Origin: Vicinamibacterales bacterium
GTDB lineage: Bacteria; Acidobacteriota; Vicinamibacteria; Vicinamibacterales; CAVVIG01
Reading direction: 5' to 3'
NCBI GenBank assembly: GCA_036004865.1
Contig: DASYQZ010000166.1
Span: 10,921 to 74,920 of the forward strand
DNA length: 64,000 nt
The notes beneath the pieces were generated by a model. That model ran no database searches and was not told the origin of the DNA. It worked only from the letters and a program-made list of their open reading frames with translations. Position numbers and translations under genes: made by a program. Below, in pieces: positions 655-54,962 of the stretch. Position 1 is the first letter of the stretch; each line of letters opens with the position of its first letter.

Positions 655-739
655 CTCTCCACCACGGAGGACACTGAGGACACGGAGGTTCCCAAACCGG
701 TTTTATCCTCCGTGTCCTTCTTTCCTCTGTGGTGGAGAG
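655..739. repeat. Palindromic element with 9-mer (ACACGGAGG-like) arms, between convergent genes
   Basis: CTCTCCACCACGGAGGACACTGAGGACACGGAGG … CCTCCGTGTCCTTCTTTCCTCTGTGGTGGAGAG is an imperfect inverted repeat. Related copies at 32658-32731 and 52683-52773. Confidence 0.85.
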
Positions 740-20136: not shown

Positions 20137-23535
<3,399 letters not shown>

Positions 23536-32054: not shown

Positions 32055-32653
32055 TCGTCCTCGGGGTATTGCTTCAGCGACTTCGGTCATCGCTTCTGCG
32101 CCTCACGGGGCGCCGCGCCTCCCCTGAGTCGCCCTGGGAACGTGTGACGATGCGGGTCCCGACGACCGCGTTCGGTCCGGGATCGCGGCGCGACTTCGCG
32201 CTCTACTTCGAGGGCGAGAGCTCGGTCCGCGTGGAATCGATCGACGACATCGTGACGTGGCTTCTCGAGTGCGAGTACGCGACCGACGTCGACCTCTTCG
32301 ACCGACGGGATTTCTGGCAGCATCCGAGCGTGTTCGAGCAGTGGCGCCGCGGCGACTGCGAGGATTTCGCGTTGTGGGCGTGGCGGAAGCTCGCCGAGAT
32401 TGGCGTCGAGGCCGAGTTCTACGTCGGGCGCGTCGTCTCGCCCGAAGATTCCACGGCCGATCGCCAGCATGCGTGGGTCGTCTATCGGACCGATCGCACC
32501 GATTTTCTCTTCGAGCCGGCCGCGCGAAGCCCGGAGCACATGATTCGGCTGCTGGCGGACGCGAAGCACGAGTACGTCCCGCATTTTGCGGTGAACCGGC
32601 GTTTCGACACCTCGGCATTTGTGGGGTGCCTCGCGTCGATGAATCGGCGCTGA
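32051..32653 (+). CDS. Transglutaminase-like cysteine peptidase
   Basis: 'GDCEDFA', 'HAWV', 'FEP' (Cys-His-acid triad); GTGA overlap with the regulator stop. Confidence 0.7.
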   Translation: MIVLGVLLQRLRSSLLRLTGRRASPESPWERVTMRVPTTAFGPGSRRDFALYFEGESSVRVESIDDIVTWLLECEYATDVDLFDRRDFWQHPSVFEQWRRGDCEDFALWAWRKLAEIGVEAEFYVGRVVSPEDSTADRQHAWVVYRTDRTDFLFEPAARSPEHMIRLLADAKHEYVPHFAVNRRFDTSAFVGCLASMNRR

Positions 32654-32657
32654 ATCA

Positions 32658-32731
32658 ACACAAAGGACACAAAGGACACGAAGGAAATCTCTTGTGTAGG
32701 TTTACCTGTGTGTCCTTGGTGTCCTTTGTGT
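32658..32731. repeat. Palindromic element with 9-mer (ACACAAAGG) arms, between convergent genes
   Basis: ACACAAAGG ACACAAAGG ACACGAAGG … CCTGTGTGT CCTTGGTGT CCTTTGTGT. Confidence 0.85.
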
Positions 32732-49000: not shown

Positions 49001-51228
49001 TGGATGCGCACGTTGTCGAGCGTCACGGGCTGAAGCCCGACGAGTACGAACGGATCAAGGAGTTCCTTGGCCGCGAGCCGAACCTCACCGAGCTCGGGAT
49101 CTTCTCGGTGATGTGGTCCGAGCACTGCAGCTACAAGAGCTCGCGCGTGCACCTGAAAACCCTGCCGACCAAAGGCCCGCAGGTGTTGCAGGGACCCGGC
49201 GAGAACGCCGGCGCCGTCGATATCGGCGAAGGCCTTGCGGCGGTCTTCAAGATCGAATCGCACAATCATCCGTCGTTCATCGAGCCGTATCAGGGCGCGG
49301 CAACCGGCGTGGGCGGTATCATCCGCGACATCTTCACCATGGGCGCGCGGCCAATCGCGCTGCTGAACTCTTTGCGATTCGGATCGCTCGACGCGGCGGG
49401 CACCCGGCAGCTGCTCGAAGGCGTTGTCGCCGGCATCGCCGGTTATGGGAACAGCATCGGCATTCCGACCGTCGGCGGCGAGATTGCGTTCGAGCCGTCG
49501 TACGCGGGCAATCCGCTGGTGAACGTCTTCTGCCTCGGCATCGCCAACGCGTCGGACATTATTAAAGGTATCGCCTCGGGCGTGGGCAATGCCGTCTACT
49601 ACGTCGGCGCGAAGACGGGCCGCGACGGCATTCACGGCGCGACGATGGCGTCGGCGGAGTTCGACGAGAAATCGGCCGAGAAACGGCCGGCGGTGCAGGT
49701 CGGCGATCCGTTCATGGAAAAGCTGCTCCTCGAAGCGTGCCTCGAGGTGATGCAGACCGACGCGCTCGTCGGCATCCAGGACATGGGAGCGGCCGGATTG
49801 ACGTGCTCGACGACCGAGATGGGATCGCGGGGCGGCGCCGGCGTCGAAATCGACGTCGCGCACGTCCCGCAGCGCGAGAGCGGCATGACGCCGTACGAAA
49901 TCATGCTGTCCGAGTCGCAGGAGCGGATGCTGCTGGTCGTCAAGCGCGGCCGGGAATCCGAGGTCGAGCGCATTTTCGACAAATGGGACCTCCACGCGGT
50001 CCACATCGGCGAAGTGACTGCCGACGGCATGCTGCGCGTGAAGGAGAAGGGCGCAGTGGTCGCCGAGATTCCGAATCGCGCGCTGACCGACGAAGCGCCG
50101 CTGTATCGCCGGCCGATGACGGAGCCCGAGTATCTTGCCGAGGTGCGAACGCTCGATCTCGACGCGCTCGCGCGGGACGGCCTGAAGGCCGTCCCCAACG
50201 ATCAGAATGGTGTCCTGCTCGCACTCCTCGGCTCGCCGACCATCGGCAGCAAGAAATGGGTGTACCGGCAGTACGATCACATGGTCCGGACCAACACCAT
50301 CAACTATCCAGGGTTTGGCGCCGGCGTCGTGCGCATCAAGGGCACCAATCGTGCGCTCGCGTTGTCGGTCGACGGCAACGGACGTTACTGCTATCTCGAT
50401 CCGCATCGGGGCGCCATGCTCGCGGTGGCCGAAGCGGCGCGCAATGTCGCGTGTGCGGGGGCGCGGCCGCTCGGCGCGACCAACTGCCTCAACTTCGGCA
50501 ATCCCGAGCGCCCGGCCATCATGTGGCAGTTCGCGAAGGCGGTCGAAGGGATGGGCGAGGCCTGCCGGGCGCTCGACGTGCCGATCACCGGCGGCAACGT
50601 CAGCCTCTACAACGAAACGGACGGCAAGGCGATTTACCCGACGCCAGTCATCGGCGTCGTCGGTCTCCTCGAGCACGCGGATCGGGTCGTCAGCCGCCGG
50701 TTCCAGCGTGCGGGTGACGCGATCGTGCTCCTCGGCGAAGGACGCGACGAGCTTGGCGGCAGCGAGTACTTGAAAGTGGTTCACGATTTGGTCCGCGGCG
50801 AGCCGCCGTCGCTCGATCTGCGGGCCGAGAAGGCGCTCCAGGAACTCCTCGTCGCGCTGGCGAGCGATCGACTCATTCGTTCGGCGCACGATGGCTCGGA
50901 CGGCGGAATCGCGGTGACGCTCGCCGAATGTTGTTTCGATACGGGCGGAATGGGGGCCGATGTGTCGATCGTCGGCGGCAACATCGCGGCGGCGCTGTTC
51001 GGCGAGTCGGCATCCCGCGCCGTCGTGTCTGTCGTTCCGGAGGATGTCGACAAGGTGCTGGACCGCGCGTCGGCGGCGAACGTGCCGGCGTGCGTCATCG
51101 GTCGAACTGGCGGCAACCTGCTGAGGATTGCCGTGGCCGGAGAGCCGGCCATCGAGCTTTCGATTCACGACGCGGAGCGGGTCTGGAGCTCTGCGATTGA
51201 ACGATTCTTTGCCAAACGTGTGGCGTGA
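48997..51228 (+). CDS. purL: FGAM synthase subunit PurL (small form)
   Basis: 'WSEHCSYK', 'KIESHNHPS', 'SESQERM', 'GGNVSLYN'. Confidence 0.95.
50174..50199. repeat. REP-like palindrome in frame inside purL
   Basis: GGGACGGCC-TGAA-GGCCGTCCC-CAAC (perfect 9-bp stem); encodes RDGLKAVPN. Confidence 0.65.
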
Positions 51229-52673
51229 TGCTTGACAAGTTCAAGGATGAATGCGGTGTCTTCGGGATCTTTGGTCATCCCGAAGCCGCCAACATGACCT
51301 ATCTCGGCCTGTATGCCCTGCAGCATCGCGGACAGGAGAGCGCCGGCATCGCGGCGTCCGATCGCGAGCAGGTGCGCATCTCGCGGGCGATGGGTTATGT
51401 CGCCGACACGTTCGACGCTCAGTCGCTGGCGCAACTGCCGGGACCGCTGGCAATCGGGCACGTGCGTTACTCCACGGCCGGCGAGAGCAAGCTGTCGAAC
51501 GCGCAGCCGATCCTGATCGATTGTGCGCACGGACAGATCGCGCTGTGCCACAACGGGAATCTCGTGAACGCGCGCGAGCTGCGCGACGAGCTCGTGCTCC
51601 AGGGATCGATCTTCCAGTCGAGCAGCGACACCGAAGTCATCCTGCATCTCTACGCGCGGTCGAAGGCGCCGATCGTCGAAGACGCGATTGTCGAATCGGT
51701 GTCGCAGGTGCAGGGCGCCTTCTCGCTCGTGATGCTCACCGCGGACCGCCTCGTCGCCGTCCGCGATCCACACGGGTTCCGCCCGCTCGCGCTCGGTCGC
51801 CTGGGCGACGCCTACGTCGTCTGCTCGGAGACGTGCGCGATGGATCTCATCGGCGCCACCTACGAGCGCGATGTCGAGCCGGGCGAAGTGCTCGTGATCT
51901 CGGACCGCGGCATCCGGTCGATCAAGCCGTTCGCACCGGCGCCGGTGAACCAGTGCATCTTCGAGCATGTGTACTTCGCGCGGCCCGACAGCTACGTGTT
52001 CGGCCGGAGCGTGAACGAAGTCCGGACCGAGCTCGGCCGCGTGCTCGCGCGCGAGCAGCCGGTGGACGCCGATGTCGTCGTACCCGTGCCCGATTCGGGC
52101 GTGTGCGCGGCGATGGGATACGCCGAGGAAGCGGAGATCCCGCTCCGCATGGGCCTCATCCGCAATCACTACGTCGGGCGCACGTTCATCCAGCCGCAGG
52201 CGTCGATTCGCCACTTCGGCGTCAAGGTGAAGCTGAATCCGGTGCGCAGCATCCTCGAAGGGAAGCGCGTCGTGCTCGTCGACGATTCGATCGTCCGCGG
52301 GACGACGAGCCGCAAGATCGTCCGGATGGTGCGCGCGGCGGGCGCCAGGGAAGTCCACGTCCGCATCAGTTGTCCGCCGACGATTTCGCCGTGCTATTAC
52401 GGCATCGACACGCCGAGCAAATCCGAGCTGATTGCCGCGACGCACACGATCGACGAAATCCGAGAGTTTCTGGAAGCGGACAGCGTCGCGTACCTGAGTC
52501 TCGAAGGGCTCCTCAGCGCCGTCGACAAGGACCGCGGGTCGTACTGCAGCTCCTGCTACACGGGTCGATATCCAGTAGAATTCCCGCGCGACGAGGCGAG
52601 TTACCTGCAGCTCGCGCTGAAGCTCGACAAGGATAAGGACCTCAACAAGGAAAAGGAACCGGTCACGAAGTGA
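51228..52673 (+). CDS. purF: Amidophosphoribosyltransferase
   Basis: Propeptide + 'ECGVFG', 'QHRGQE', '[10 protein letters not shown]', Fe-S cysteines. Confidence 0.95.
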
Positions 52674-52677
52674 TCCG

Positions 52678-53940
52678 ATGAAAAACGCTCCACCACGGAG
52701 GACACGGAGGACGCCGAGGATCAAAAGCTTTTCTGTCCTCTGTGTCCTCGGTGTCCTCTGTGGTGGAGCGTTTGCGAAGGGTGGGGACCTTTCAAGGGTG
52801 CAGGAACCAAGCGCCCCGCAAGCCGTCTCCGCCGCGCAGTTGAAAGCCGCGATCGACAAGCTTGGCGACCTCGATTACGCCACCCGCACCAATGCCTCGC
52901 GGACGATCCGGCGCACGGCGAACGCGCAGGCGGTGCCGGCGCTGCTGCAGGCGATCACCGAGCACATCGACGGCTACGTTCGCTATCGCGCGCTGGTCCT
53001 GTTGACCGGCTTCAACGATCCGCGGACCAGGGACGCGATGCGTGAGTCGCTCGCCAGCCCGAACGATCGCCTGCGCACGGTCGCGTACAGCTTCTTCGAG
53101 CACAATCCCGATCGCGCGATGACGGCGACCTTCCTCACGGCACTCGAGAAGGAGCAGGCCGAGTTCGTGCGTCCCGCGCTCGTCCGCGCGCTGGCAGCCT
53201 CGGGTCGCCTGCCGTCGACTCCCGCCGCCGATGCCACGCGCGTGCAGCAGGCGCTCGTCCGCGAGGTGAGCCGCGGCGAAGACTTCTTCCGCAGCGCCGT
53301 CATCGAAGCGCTCGGCGACTACAAGGCGGCCTACGCGTTCGATGCGCTCACGGCGGTCGCGAAAATCGAGGGCCCGCTGCAGGACGACGCGGCGCTGGCG
53401 CTCGGCAAAATCGGCGACAAGCGTGCGCTCGAAACGCTGGCCGCGATGCAGCGCAGCGCGCCGCGCCGGACGCAGCCGTCGATTGCGACGGCCATCTGTC
53501 TGCTCGGCGTCAACTGCGCGTCGCACGAGAACTATCTCGTCGAGACGCTCAAGTTCGCCAACAGGAACCCCGGTTTCCAGGAGCTGCTGCGCGGCGCGGC
53601 CGCCGGACTCGGGGCACTGGCCGTGGCCGGACGTGACGAGGCGGTCAGCGCGCTGTTCGACATCGGCATTCCGGCGCGAGACGACTCGACGCGCGCGCCG
53701 GTCGCGCTCGCCGCCGCCACCGTCGCGCTCCGCAATACGCCGCTGCTGATGCCGATTCTGGAGAAGCGGACCGATCGGGATCAGGCGATGCTGCTCCTGG
53801 CCGAAGGCTTCGACATGCTCGAAGAGGATCTGGACAAGGAACGCTTTTTCGCCTTCGCGAGACGCACGTACTGGGATTCGCCGGAAAGCTCGCCGCGCCG
53901 CACGCTGATGCAAACGCTCATCGGAAAGCTCGATTTCTAA
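52678..53940 (+). CDS. Exported HEAT-repeat protein
   Basis: Basic + hydrophobic N-terminus, repeated helical pairs ('AALALGKIGDKRAL', 'AVIEALGD'). Confidence 0.75.
   Translation: MKNAPPRRTRRTPRIKSFSVLCVLGVLCGGAFAKGGDLSRVQEPSAPQAVSAAQLKAAIDKLGDLDYATRTNASRTIRRTANAQAVPALLQAITEHIDGYVRYRALVLLTGFNDPRTRDAMRESLASPNDRLRTVAYSFFEHNPDRAMTATFLTALEKEQAEFVRPALVRALAASGRLPSTPAADATRVQQALVREVSRGEDFFRSAVIEALGDYKAAYAFDALTAVAKIEGPLQDDAALALGKIGDKRALETLAAMQRSAPRRTQPSIATAICLLGVNCASHENYLVETLKFANRNPGFQELLRGAAAGLGALAVAGRDEAVSALFDIGIPARDDSTRAPVALAAATVALRNTPLLMPILEKRTDRDQAMLLLAEGFDMLEEDLDKERFFAFARRTYWDSPESSPRRTLMQTLIGKLDF
52683..52773. repeat. 9-mer-arm palindromic element encoding the N-terminus of the HEAT protein
   Basis: AAACGCTCCACCACGGAGGACACGGAGGACGCCGAGG … CCTCTGTGTCCTCGGTGTCCTCTGTGGTGGAGCGTTT. 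Confidence 0.88.
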
Positions 53941-54962
53941 TGGACTACAAATCCGCCGGCGTCGACATCGACGCCGGCAACGAGACAGTCAAACGAATCA
54001 GGTCCCTCGCCCGCCGGACCTTCACGCCCGGCGTGCTGTCCGACATCGGATCGTTCGGCGGTCTGTTCCGGCTCGGCGATCGCTATAAGGATCCGGTGCT
54101 GGTTTCGAGTACCGACGGCGTCGGCACGAAGCTCAGGATCGCGTTCATCACCGGCCGTCACGACACGATTGGCGCAGATCTCGTCAACCACTGCGTGAAC
54201 GACATCCTGGTGCAGGGCGCGGAGCCGCTCTTTTTCCTCGACTACCTCTCGACCGGCCGGCTGGCGCCCGACGTCGCCGAGCAGGTCATCACCGGCGTCG
54301 CGCGCGCGTGCACGGAGAACGGCTGCGCGCTGATCGGCGGCGAGACAGCCGAGATGCCCGGCTTCTACGCCGACGGCGAGTACGACCTGGCCGGCTTCAT
54401 CGTCGGCGCGGTCGAGAAGACGAAGATCGTCGACGGCCGGACGATTGTGCCCGGCGACGTGCTCATCGGCCTGCCGTCGAGTGGTCTGCACACCAACGGG
54501 TACTCGCTCGCGAGGCGCGTGTTCTTCGAGCTGGCGCAGTGGAAGGTGGACAAGTTCGTACGCGATCTGGGCGTCACGCTCGGCGAGGCCCTCCTGGCGC
54601 CGCATCGATCGTATCTGCCGTTCGTGCGGCCGCTCCTCGAGCGAAACTATGCGCGGGGTCTGGCGCACATCACCGGCGGCGGCATCACGGAAAACCTTCC
54701 CCGCGTGCTGCCCGGAGGATGCGCCGCCGAGATCGATCGGCGCGCGTGGTCGGTGCCGCCGATCTTCCGCGTGCTGCAGCAGCACGGCCGGATTCCGGAC
54801 GACGAGATGTTCCGCACCTTCAACATGGGCATCGGCCTGATTGTCGTCTGTGCGCCCCGCTACGCCGAACGCGTGATCAACACCGTCTCGCTCGCCGGCG
54901 AGCCGAAGGCGGTGCGCATCGGGTTCGTCGTGGGCGGAGACCGAACCGTCCGCTACGTCTGA
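53940..54962 (+). CDS. purM: Phosphoribosylformylglycinamidine cyclo-ligase
   Basis: 'YKSAGVDI', 'TDGVGTK', 'GGETAEMP', 'HITGGG', 'TFNMGIG'. Confidence 0.95.
   Translation: MDYKSAGVDIDAGNETVKRIRSLARRTFTPGVLSDIGSFGGLFRLGDRYKDPVLVSSTDGVGTKLRIAFITGRHDTIGADLVNHCVNDILVQGAEPLFFLDYLSTGRLAPDVAEQVITGVARACTENGCALIGGETAEMPGFYADGEYDLAGFIVGAVEKTKIVDGRTIVPGDVLIGLPSSGLHTNGYSLARRVFFELAQWKVDKFVRDLGVTLGEALLAPHRSYLPFVRPLLERNYARGLAHITGGGITENLPRVLPGGCAAEIDRRAWSVPPIFRVLQQHGRIPDDEMFRTFNMGIGLIVVCAPRYAERVINTVSLAGEPKAVRIGFVVGGDRTVRYV

Follow-up and report, generated by a model that had tools for sequence, protein, structure and literature searches.

In Yersinia, the RU-2 repeat contributes a stretch of the signal peptide predicted for YPO1552, as outlined in a paper on this repeat and in a review (Delihas, 2007, PMC2759123; PMC2229807). 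In its passages on YPO1552, the former describes the RU-2/YPAL MITE in one or two small hypothetical open reading frames that are 100% conserved in close species, and those passages include no selection test (PMC2759123). In Rickettsia, the palindromic repeats called RPEs are tolerated in frame in conserved protein genes, as is the repeat described below, according to the section devoted to them in the same review (Ogata, 2000, via PMC2229807). Among Enterobacterales orthologues, signal peptides change by the insertion or deletion of whole blocks, as stated in the relevant passages of a survey (PMC5952966). The locus presented here lies in a window of 64,000 nucleotides, the whole stretch of DNA analyzed, from a Vicinamibacterales bacterium (contig DASYQZ010000166.1). 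It is highly probable that the leader of a HEAT-repeat gene in this window is a copy of a dispersed repeat that very likely acts as a Sec signal peptide, by prediction, and that likely replaced an ordinary ancestral one.

The HEAT-repeat gene (52678..53940, plus strand) is an open reading frame encoding a predicted exported protein of 420 residues with its leader, with a HEAT_2 domain at residues 57-136. It is preceded by purF, the amidophosphoribosyltransferase gene (51225..52673, plus strand; GATase and Pribosyltran domains), and followed by purM, the AIR synthase gene (53940..54962, plus strand; AIRS and AIRS_C domains), and this place between purF and purM is conserved; the gene itself was found in 50 of 61 related genomes. 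A HEAT-repeat protein predicted to be exported is retained directly behind purF across an order, inside a purine operon. The end of purF itself (52625-52670) encodes an Asp-Lys repeat tail that varies among relatives and is longest in L026. The likely start codon of the HEAT gene is the ATG at 52678..52680 (plus strand), 4 nt past the purF stop, and the overlapping or nearly overlapping purF/HEAT starts of many orthologues suggest translational coupling between the two genes. In a structure model, the protein is folded only from about residue 46, with pLDDT below 50 over residues 1-45. The first invariant column among homologues is E43, conservation within the family beginning at QE, and a fold search matched only generic alpha-solenoids (alphaRep, importin).

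The leader, namely the first 33 codons (52678-52776), is a copy of a dispersed palindrome built of 9-nt units. As delimited by folding and by alignment with the copy at 655-739, the element belongs to subfamily A and its whole hairpin, which has no strand assigned, spans 52683..52773; the stem thus begins at the third base of codon 2, as originally predicted. The hairpin has a stability of -83.3 kcal/mol (z -10.9), equaled by none of 200 shuffled sequences. Read from 52678, the frame gives MKNA-PPRRTRRTPR-IKSF-SVLCVLGVLCGG-AFA-KGGDLSRVQEP, which bears out the claim that a basic PPRRTRRTPR on the left arm and a hydrophobic stretch on the right arm are followed by AFA. The purine-rich left arm (52694..52718, plus strand; three 9-nt units) encodes the basic RRTRRTPR, the predicted n-region, and the pyrimidine-rich right arm (52738..52762, plus strand; also three 9-nt units, none with Arg) encodes LCVLGVLC, the predicted h-region, followed by GG-AFA. 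The A-F-A at 52768..52776 (plus strand) is the predicted signal peptidase I site, and its first Ala and its Phe are supplied by the end of the element. The arms are free of stop codons in all frames and differ by one to three mismatches from present-day dispersed copies, and the left arm (35 nt) recurs at 56 further sites of the genome with at most five mismatches. Beyond AFA, the GGDL tail (52780-52797) is similar to the way in which an older subfamily-A leader, such as that of P0007, ends on its right-hand side, which hints at layered insertion. The depth of contigs over 52679-52771, summed within each of four soil metagenome runs, reached tens to more than 100 times that of the flanking genes, which indicates that soil communities carry this repeat family in abundance.

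Two intergenic copies lie in the same window, each between convergent genes and with no strand assigned: one at 655..739, between open reading frames ending at 635 and 743, and one at 32658..32731, between open reading frames ending at 32653 and 32759. Both form real hairpins (z -8.8 and -7.6). The original prediction had taken them for the same palindrome as the leader, which holds for the first, a subfamily-A copy with the CACGGAGGA units and CTCCACCAC ends of the leader, but not strictly for the second, which is of the sister subfamily B, with CACAAAGGA units. The genome-wide search that had been proposed, conducted on a genome that is 74% complete, found 261 arms, where a codon-shuffled control gave 8. 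These include 76 full palindromes (29 of subfamily A, 19 of B, 18 of C and 10 of D) and 110 single arms, the purine arm always coming first. Most copies are intergenic, and 54 of the 76 full ones lie between tandem genes; the median distance to a stop codon is 16 nt, and 75 of 86 copies fall within 40 nt of one. No Rfam family was found in the window at gathering score. The right-arm pattern was also seen, mostly outside genes, in at least 10 phyla (L187-L266), including Acidobacteriota, Planctomycetota, Verrucomicrobiota, Chloroflexota, Myxococcota, Cyanobacteriota, Pseudomonadota, Gemmatimonadota and others.

The leader of the HEAT protein very likely works as a Sec signal peptide, a prediction made from the sequence. 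Residues 1-16 carry seven Lys or Arg and no acidic residue, as a Sec n-region should. The h-region, VLCVLGVLC, is uncharged, with a mean hydropathy of 3.18 over its nine residues, a length within the 8-15 or so usual for such regions; the candidate cleavage site, A31-F32-A33, has its counterpart in the AxA or AxG that most homologues show ahead of QE; and the leader precedes the conserved folded domain in a protein whose orthologues are of exported type. A Tat signal peptide has in its place the motif S/T-R-R-x-F-L-K directly ahead of the h-region. That reading was rejected for this leader: the Arg pairs of RRTRRT precede T-P-R or T-R-R, which is not the motif, and many homologues read TQR, with no pair at all. 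A comparison with orthologues lacking the element had been proposed, and in all 15 readable ones from other families of the same order the leader is hydrophobic, of an ordinary type and free of tandem units, which indicates that the protein is of exported type and that its ancestral leader was ordinary.

The reading as a signal peptide requires that translation begin at the ATG, which has no clear Shine-Dalgarno sequence and is followed after 2 nt by the -83 kcal/mol hairpin, which should be an obstacle to initiation. Translation might instead begin at the GTG at 52798..52800 (Val41, plus strand), or the element might be untranslated, the hairpin being a REP-like RNA that stabilizes or punctuates the pur mRNA and the frame being incidental. 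Besides the very stable hairpin immediately past the ATG, this account can call on a GGGGA located 9-13 nt ahead of the GTG, on the mostly intergenic location of the copies, with 54 of 76 between tandem genes, and on arms that lack stops whichever way they are read. The GTG, however, is not conserved: homologues have Ala or Gly at this position before QE, a contig from a close strain reads GCG at 52798 (one contig, depth 5.6), and a 98%-identical contig with a different leader has no GTG there either. An independent run spans the whole purF-HEAT junction with a single difference, F32V (52771 T>G, in one contig), which turns the predicted site into A-V-A and so keeps A-x-A; none of the contigs aligned to the locus lacked just the element. 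A start at the GTG would also entail the loss of a leader common to all 15 readable outgroup orthologues, and the Arg avoidance and fixed phase described below need selection on the peptide. A downstream start, which the original prediction had named among the findings that would refute it, or an untranslated element is therefore largely refuted and very improbable. As Val replaces the usual Ala before QE in this genome and GGGGA precedes it, a second, leaderless product from the GTG is nevertheless possible.

Leaders of the same type are frequent in the family to which the window belongs, where many read TQRTRRTQR...LCVLCVLC...AxA-QE, the homologue search favoring repeat-type leaders since its query included the leader. 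Their codons set them apart: TGT accounts for 30 of 38 Cys codons and CTT for 34 of 55 Leu codons, compared with 16% and 4% genome-wide and with 4 of 11 and 6 of 61 in ordinary leaders. This excess indicates that the leaders are repeat DNA rather than products of convergence. By a strict DNA rule, which overlooks three visibly degenerate cases, repeat-type HEAT leaders are present in 11 of the 24 genomes that have at least 10 arms and in 1 of the 24 that have fewer. The leader counts exclude L043, at a contig end, and L052, which is frameshifted; the repeat-rich genomes G005, G017 and G049 have ordinary HEAT leaders. Only the right arm is present in 51 of 103 repeat-type leaders. In the leader of L004 (G023), a 27-nt sequence repeated in tandem about three times follows the right arm and lengthens the c-region.

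It could be held that ordinary signal peptides drifted by slippage toward Leu-Cys-Val repeats and merely resemble the element. Some leaders are indeed degenerate (L007, L015, L023, L029), and a few genome matches with one loose arm, such as that of the transporter on C7, may be due to chance. For the HEAT gene, this idea is refuted by the match of both arms, the spacer and the outer flanks to dispersed copies at the DNA level, by the predominance of the rare codons TGT and CTT, and by the switching of leaders among recognizable subfamilies. Convergence is accordingly regarded as extremely improbable there, and it may apply to some single-arm cases.

The HEAT leaders differ from dispersed copies in ways that point to selection on the encoded peptide. 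In the LCV frame, dispersed CTC-type arms mostly read Leu-Arg-Val, and units 1-2 are free of Arg in only 3 of 66, whereas they are so in every one of the 14 distinct HEAT leader strings of A type; where Arg is found in the latter, in 9 of the 14, it sits in the last unit, at the end of the h-region. Similarly, the phase between the two arms is evenly distributed in dispersed copies (29/24/23 of 76), whereas in the leaders of 106 homologues a left arm read in the basic frame was seen 49 times and one read in the acidic frame never. The counted rows share ancestry, so that such counts overstate the case and the contrast weighs more than any p-value. Judged from these sequences, only selection acting on the peptide explains both Arg avoidance and the fixed phase of the left arm. 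The view that the element naturally yields both an n-region and an h-region hence needs amending: the pyrimidine arm does read as hydrophobic, and two of its three frames, LCV and FAV/FVS, are used as h-regions, but with a random phase in dispersed copies the basic n-region must be selected and is not automatic.

The leaders also appear to turn over. The nearest homologues, P0001 and P0002, are identical to the HEAT protein at 371 and 368 of 379 positions of the mature part, and their leaders are of subfamily B, like that of G004; a mature part 98% identical next to a leader from another repeat subfamily indicates a recent swap. In run X10, one contig is identical at 196 of 200 positions to 52801-53000 and continues upstream into a B-type end, RAAGA, while a separate contig, identical at 98 of 100 positions to the end of purF, continues into a TAATG stop-start overlap; the forms of this run are thus represented by two contigs, not by one bridge. 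In a quick tree of 153 mature sequences, which leaves 64 of 145 inner branches open and omits L043, L052 and L053, at least 17 switches between A and B leaders were counted among 47 rows, typed roughly by their amino-acid ends. The swaps would have come about by new insertion, by conversion between copies, or by strain-to-strain recombination at the junction.

A different history would involve one ancient insertion in the ancestor of the family, followed by decay and horizontal exchange of the purF-HEAT junction with no fresh insertions. Such a course would fit the restriction of repeat-type leaders to one family, where they dominate one large clade, the resemblance of the GGDL tail in the window to the end of the P0007 leader, and a purF tail that also differs from those of close strains, as expected if a junction block had been exchanged. 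It fits less well with the presence at the site of two or more subfamilies and of many copies close to the consensus, with arms in the window only one to three mismatches from present-day dispersed copies, and with the recruitment of other subfamilies and frames by unrelated genes. A single insertion is considered unlikely on balance; the question concerns history only, and either answer is compatible with the leader as a signal peptide.

By gene calls made in this analysis, 85 arm-strand rows, corresponding to 82 genes, have a gene beginning just downstream. In 18 of the 82, a crude signal-peptide rule places the h-region on the arm; since this rule over-calls, with 1020 of 3005 genes (34%) called, the figure is not enrichment by itself, and the identity of the genes carries the weight. 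The 18 leaders use the LCV frame in 10 cases, the HEAT gene included, the FAV/FVS frame in 8 and PLC in none. The phases of arms ahead of genes (LCV 35, SVS/FAV 31 and PLC 19 of 85 rows) are not counted as evidence, because stops in the flanks bias them. The genes with arm-built leaders code mostly for envelope proteins, including an amidase with an AMIN domain, a multiheme cytochrome, a protein with a TonB-receptor-type domain, CotH, PD40 and FG-GAP/ASPIC proteins, TPR and other lipoproteins, and M14 and M28 peptidases. The M24 and M20 peptidase candidates come from families whose members often reside in the cytoplasm, and candidate C184 is doubtful. With Pfam families sorted as cytoplasmic or envelope from general knowledge, none of the 39 genes of cytoplasmic families behind arms (lysS, hisG, trpA, dapF, truA and recJ among them) uses the arm, each having a start after it. 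Ten rows have no start after the arm, and they comprise nine exported-type proteins and one membrane transporter. Of all the proteins examined behind arms, 20 were picked by eye as signal-peptide-like, the other 61 being the remainder.

Two of the genes were checked against their orthologues. For the amidase, 20 of 25 readable orthologues have ordinary leaders, four have repeat-type leaders (a two-armed subfamily-D copy in G000 and G004, the right arm in G016 and G023) and one, in G002, is degenerate. For a HEAT-cyclophilin, clear LC(V/A)LC leaders are present in G000, G002, G004 and G023, and most others are ordinary. The pattern is thus not peculiar to the HEAT gene, a point on which the original prediction had staked itself. 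Its proposal that the repeat can create or replace Sec signal peptides holds as regards replacement, ordinary leaders being ancestral, but no cytoplasmic protein was found to have gained export. Elsewhere in the genome, a Peptidase_S58 protein has a full subfamily-A element in frame within its N-terminal linker, following its own ordinary signal peptide (L173; G000:C116, minus strand, arm near 21431).

Across phyla, a frame test with one pattern at 80 of more than 120 loci found Ala-Gln in frame with the preceding arm in 23 (p 0.84), with no enrichment, indicating that beyond the family recruitment is an exception among copies. The frame is open to the end of the locus in 12 of the 23 in-frame loci and in 10 of the 57 others, and six in-frame loci have an upstream ATG (four in Acidobacteriota, one in Planctomycetota and one in Lentisphaerota); such loci are leads only.

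As to what might move the repeats, two of the three GxxExxY genes of the genome (PF13366, PD-(D/E)XK) have a left arm on one side and a right arm on the other, while the third has a right arm. As arms bracket these nuclease genes, the palindromes devoid of a gene are likely empty forms of the nuclease cassette. Among the 61 related genomes, which include kin that are not independent, the gene was found in 26 of the 28 that have at least 10 arms and in 8 of the 33 that have fewer. Position and co-occurrence lead to the guess that the GxxExxY nuclease is the mover. One of the genes, between subfamily-A arms (L032; G000:C33:15630-16090), is apparently frameshifted near its C-terminus, and the one on C133, with the right arm only, is apparently split near its start. 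G049 (86% complete) has 200 arm matches and an ordinary HEAT leader, and no PF13366 gene was found in it. At G000:C96:19701-19819 (L073), an M20 peptidase gene is preceded by a subfamily-B element in which a subfamily-A element is nested, and the leader of the peptidase uses the outer right arm; this suggests that existing copies act as targets for new ones.

These observations may be combined into a mechanism. Copies would land just behind stop codons, which in tightly packed operons is the 5' end of the next gene. Signal-peptide regions need only charge and hydrophobicity, and they are cut off. A copy could survive there because its arms are stop-free, its 9-nt units hold the frame and its pyrimidine arm is hydrophobic in two frames. 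The arm would then take over the h-region in its Leu-Cys-Val or Phe-Ala-Val reading, and selection would retain the copies with an arm in a hydrophobic frame, a core without Arg, and a left arm either in the basic frame or lost. Occasional overwriting of the leader by another copy would account for different subfamilies in near-identical genes. Translation of the HEAT gene probably begins by coupling to purF, possibly helping the ribosome into the hairpin. A bolder version, entertained as a tentative possibility, is that the GxxExxY-linked repeat is a self-renewing signal-peptide cassette, with arms shaped as an h-region in two frames and as an n-region. The nuclease would re-target existing copies, signal-peptide regions would provide a safe haven, a sizeable share of the secretome signals of the lineage would be repeatedly overwritten, and the hairpin would also set the translation level of exported proteins.

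In the REP/REPIN systems, the repeats flank a HUH (Y1) tyrosine transposase, RAYT, and begin with a GTAG-type tetranucleotide. No GTAG-type end was found in the 76 full copies, and PF13366 is the only gene family between paired arms. The likeness to REP/REPIN-RAYT resides in hundreds of intergenic palindromic repeats associated with one repeat-flanked small nuclease gene. The Ssn nuclease and its NTS repeats are a similar pair (Chenal, 2025; PMC11893778). In contrast, the partner here is a putative nuclease of the GxxExxY/PDDEXK_3 type (PF13366), neither a HUH transposase like RAYT nor a GIY-YIG nuclease like Ssn. The 76 full copies have the traits of MITEs of the RU-2, ERIC and RPE type, being small, devoid of coding capacity, multi-copy and mostly intergenic, with a long stem-loop and inverted ends; no TA ends are apparent among the listed copies. 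The ends are shared with PF13366 cassettes (two of three genes), and PF13366 is not a known transposase.

In the literature covered, mostly articles outside subscription journals, neither this repeat nor its use as a signal peptide was found described. According to the review section cited above, RPEs are inserts in mature proteins for which no role has been shown, whereas the repeat described here provides a part that the protein needs and that, by prediction, is removed by cleavage (PMC2229807). The passages of the Enterobacterales survey on this point report no transposable elements near the affected N-termini, as searched with ISEScan, whereas in the present case a small repeat is the donor; it is a candidate donor for such whole-block changes, near which the survey saw no mobile element (PMC5952966). 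Repeat DNA thus appears to have become a working part of proteins on repeated occasions, a concrete and countable route from selfish repeat DNA to a needed part of bacterial proteins, and at one conserved gene the ancestral state can be seen together with a mark of selection and with recent swaps. With a candidate DNA target, the orphan GxxExxY nuclease family becomes testable, and Cys-rich LCVLC or FAVFA leaders in Vicinamibacterales may serve as markers of repeat-derived signal peptides and explain mis-called starts. Compared with RU-2 in YPO1552, the repeat is used in a conserved gene family and in about 17 more genes, its arms consist of tandem 9-nt units read in two frames, and its subfamilies have been swapped repeatedly under a signature of selection. 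This repeated turnover, together with the signal of selection, is what the HEAT locus adds to the Yersinia precedent.
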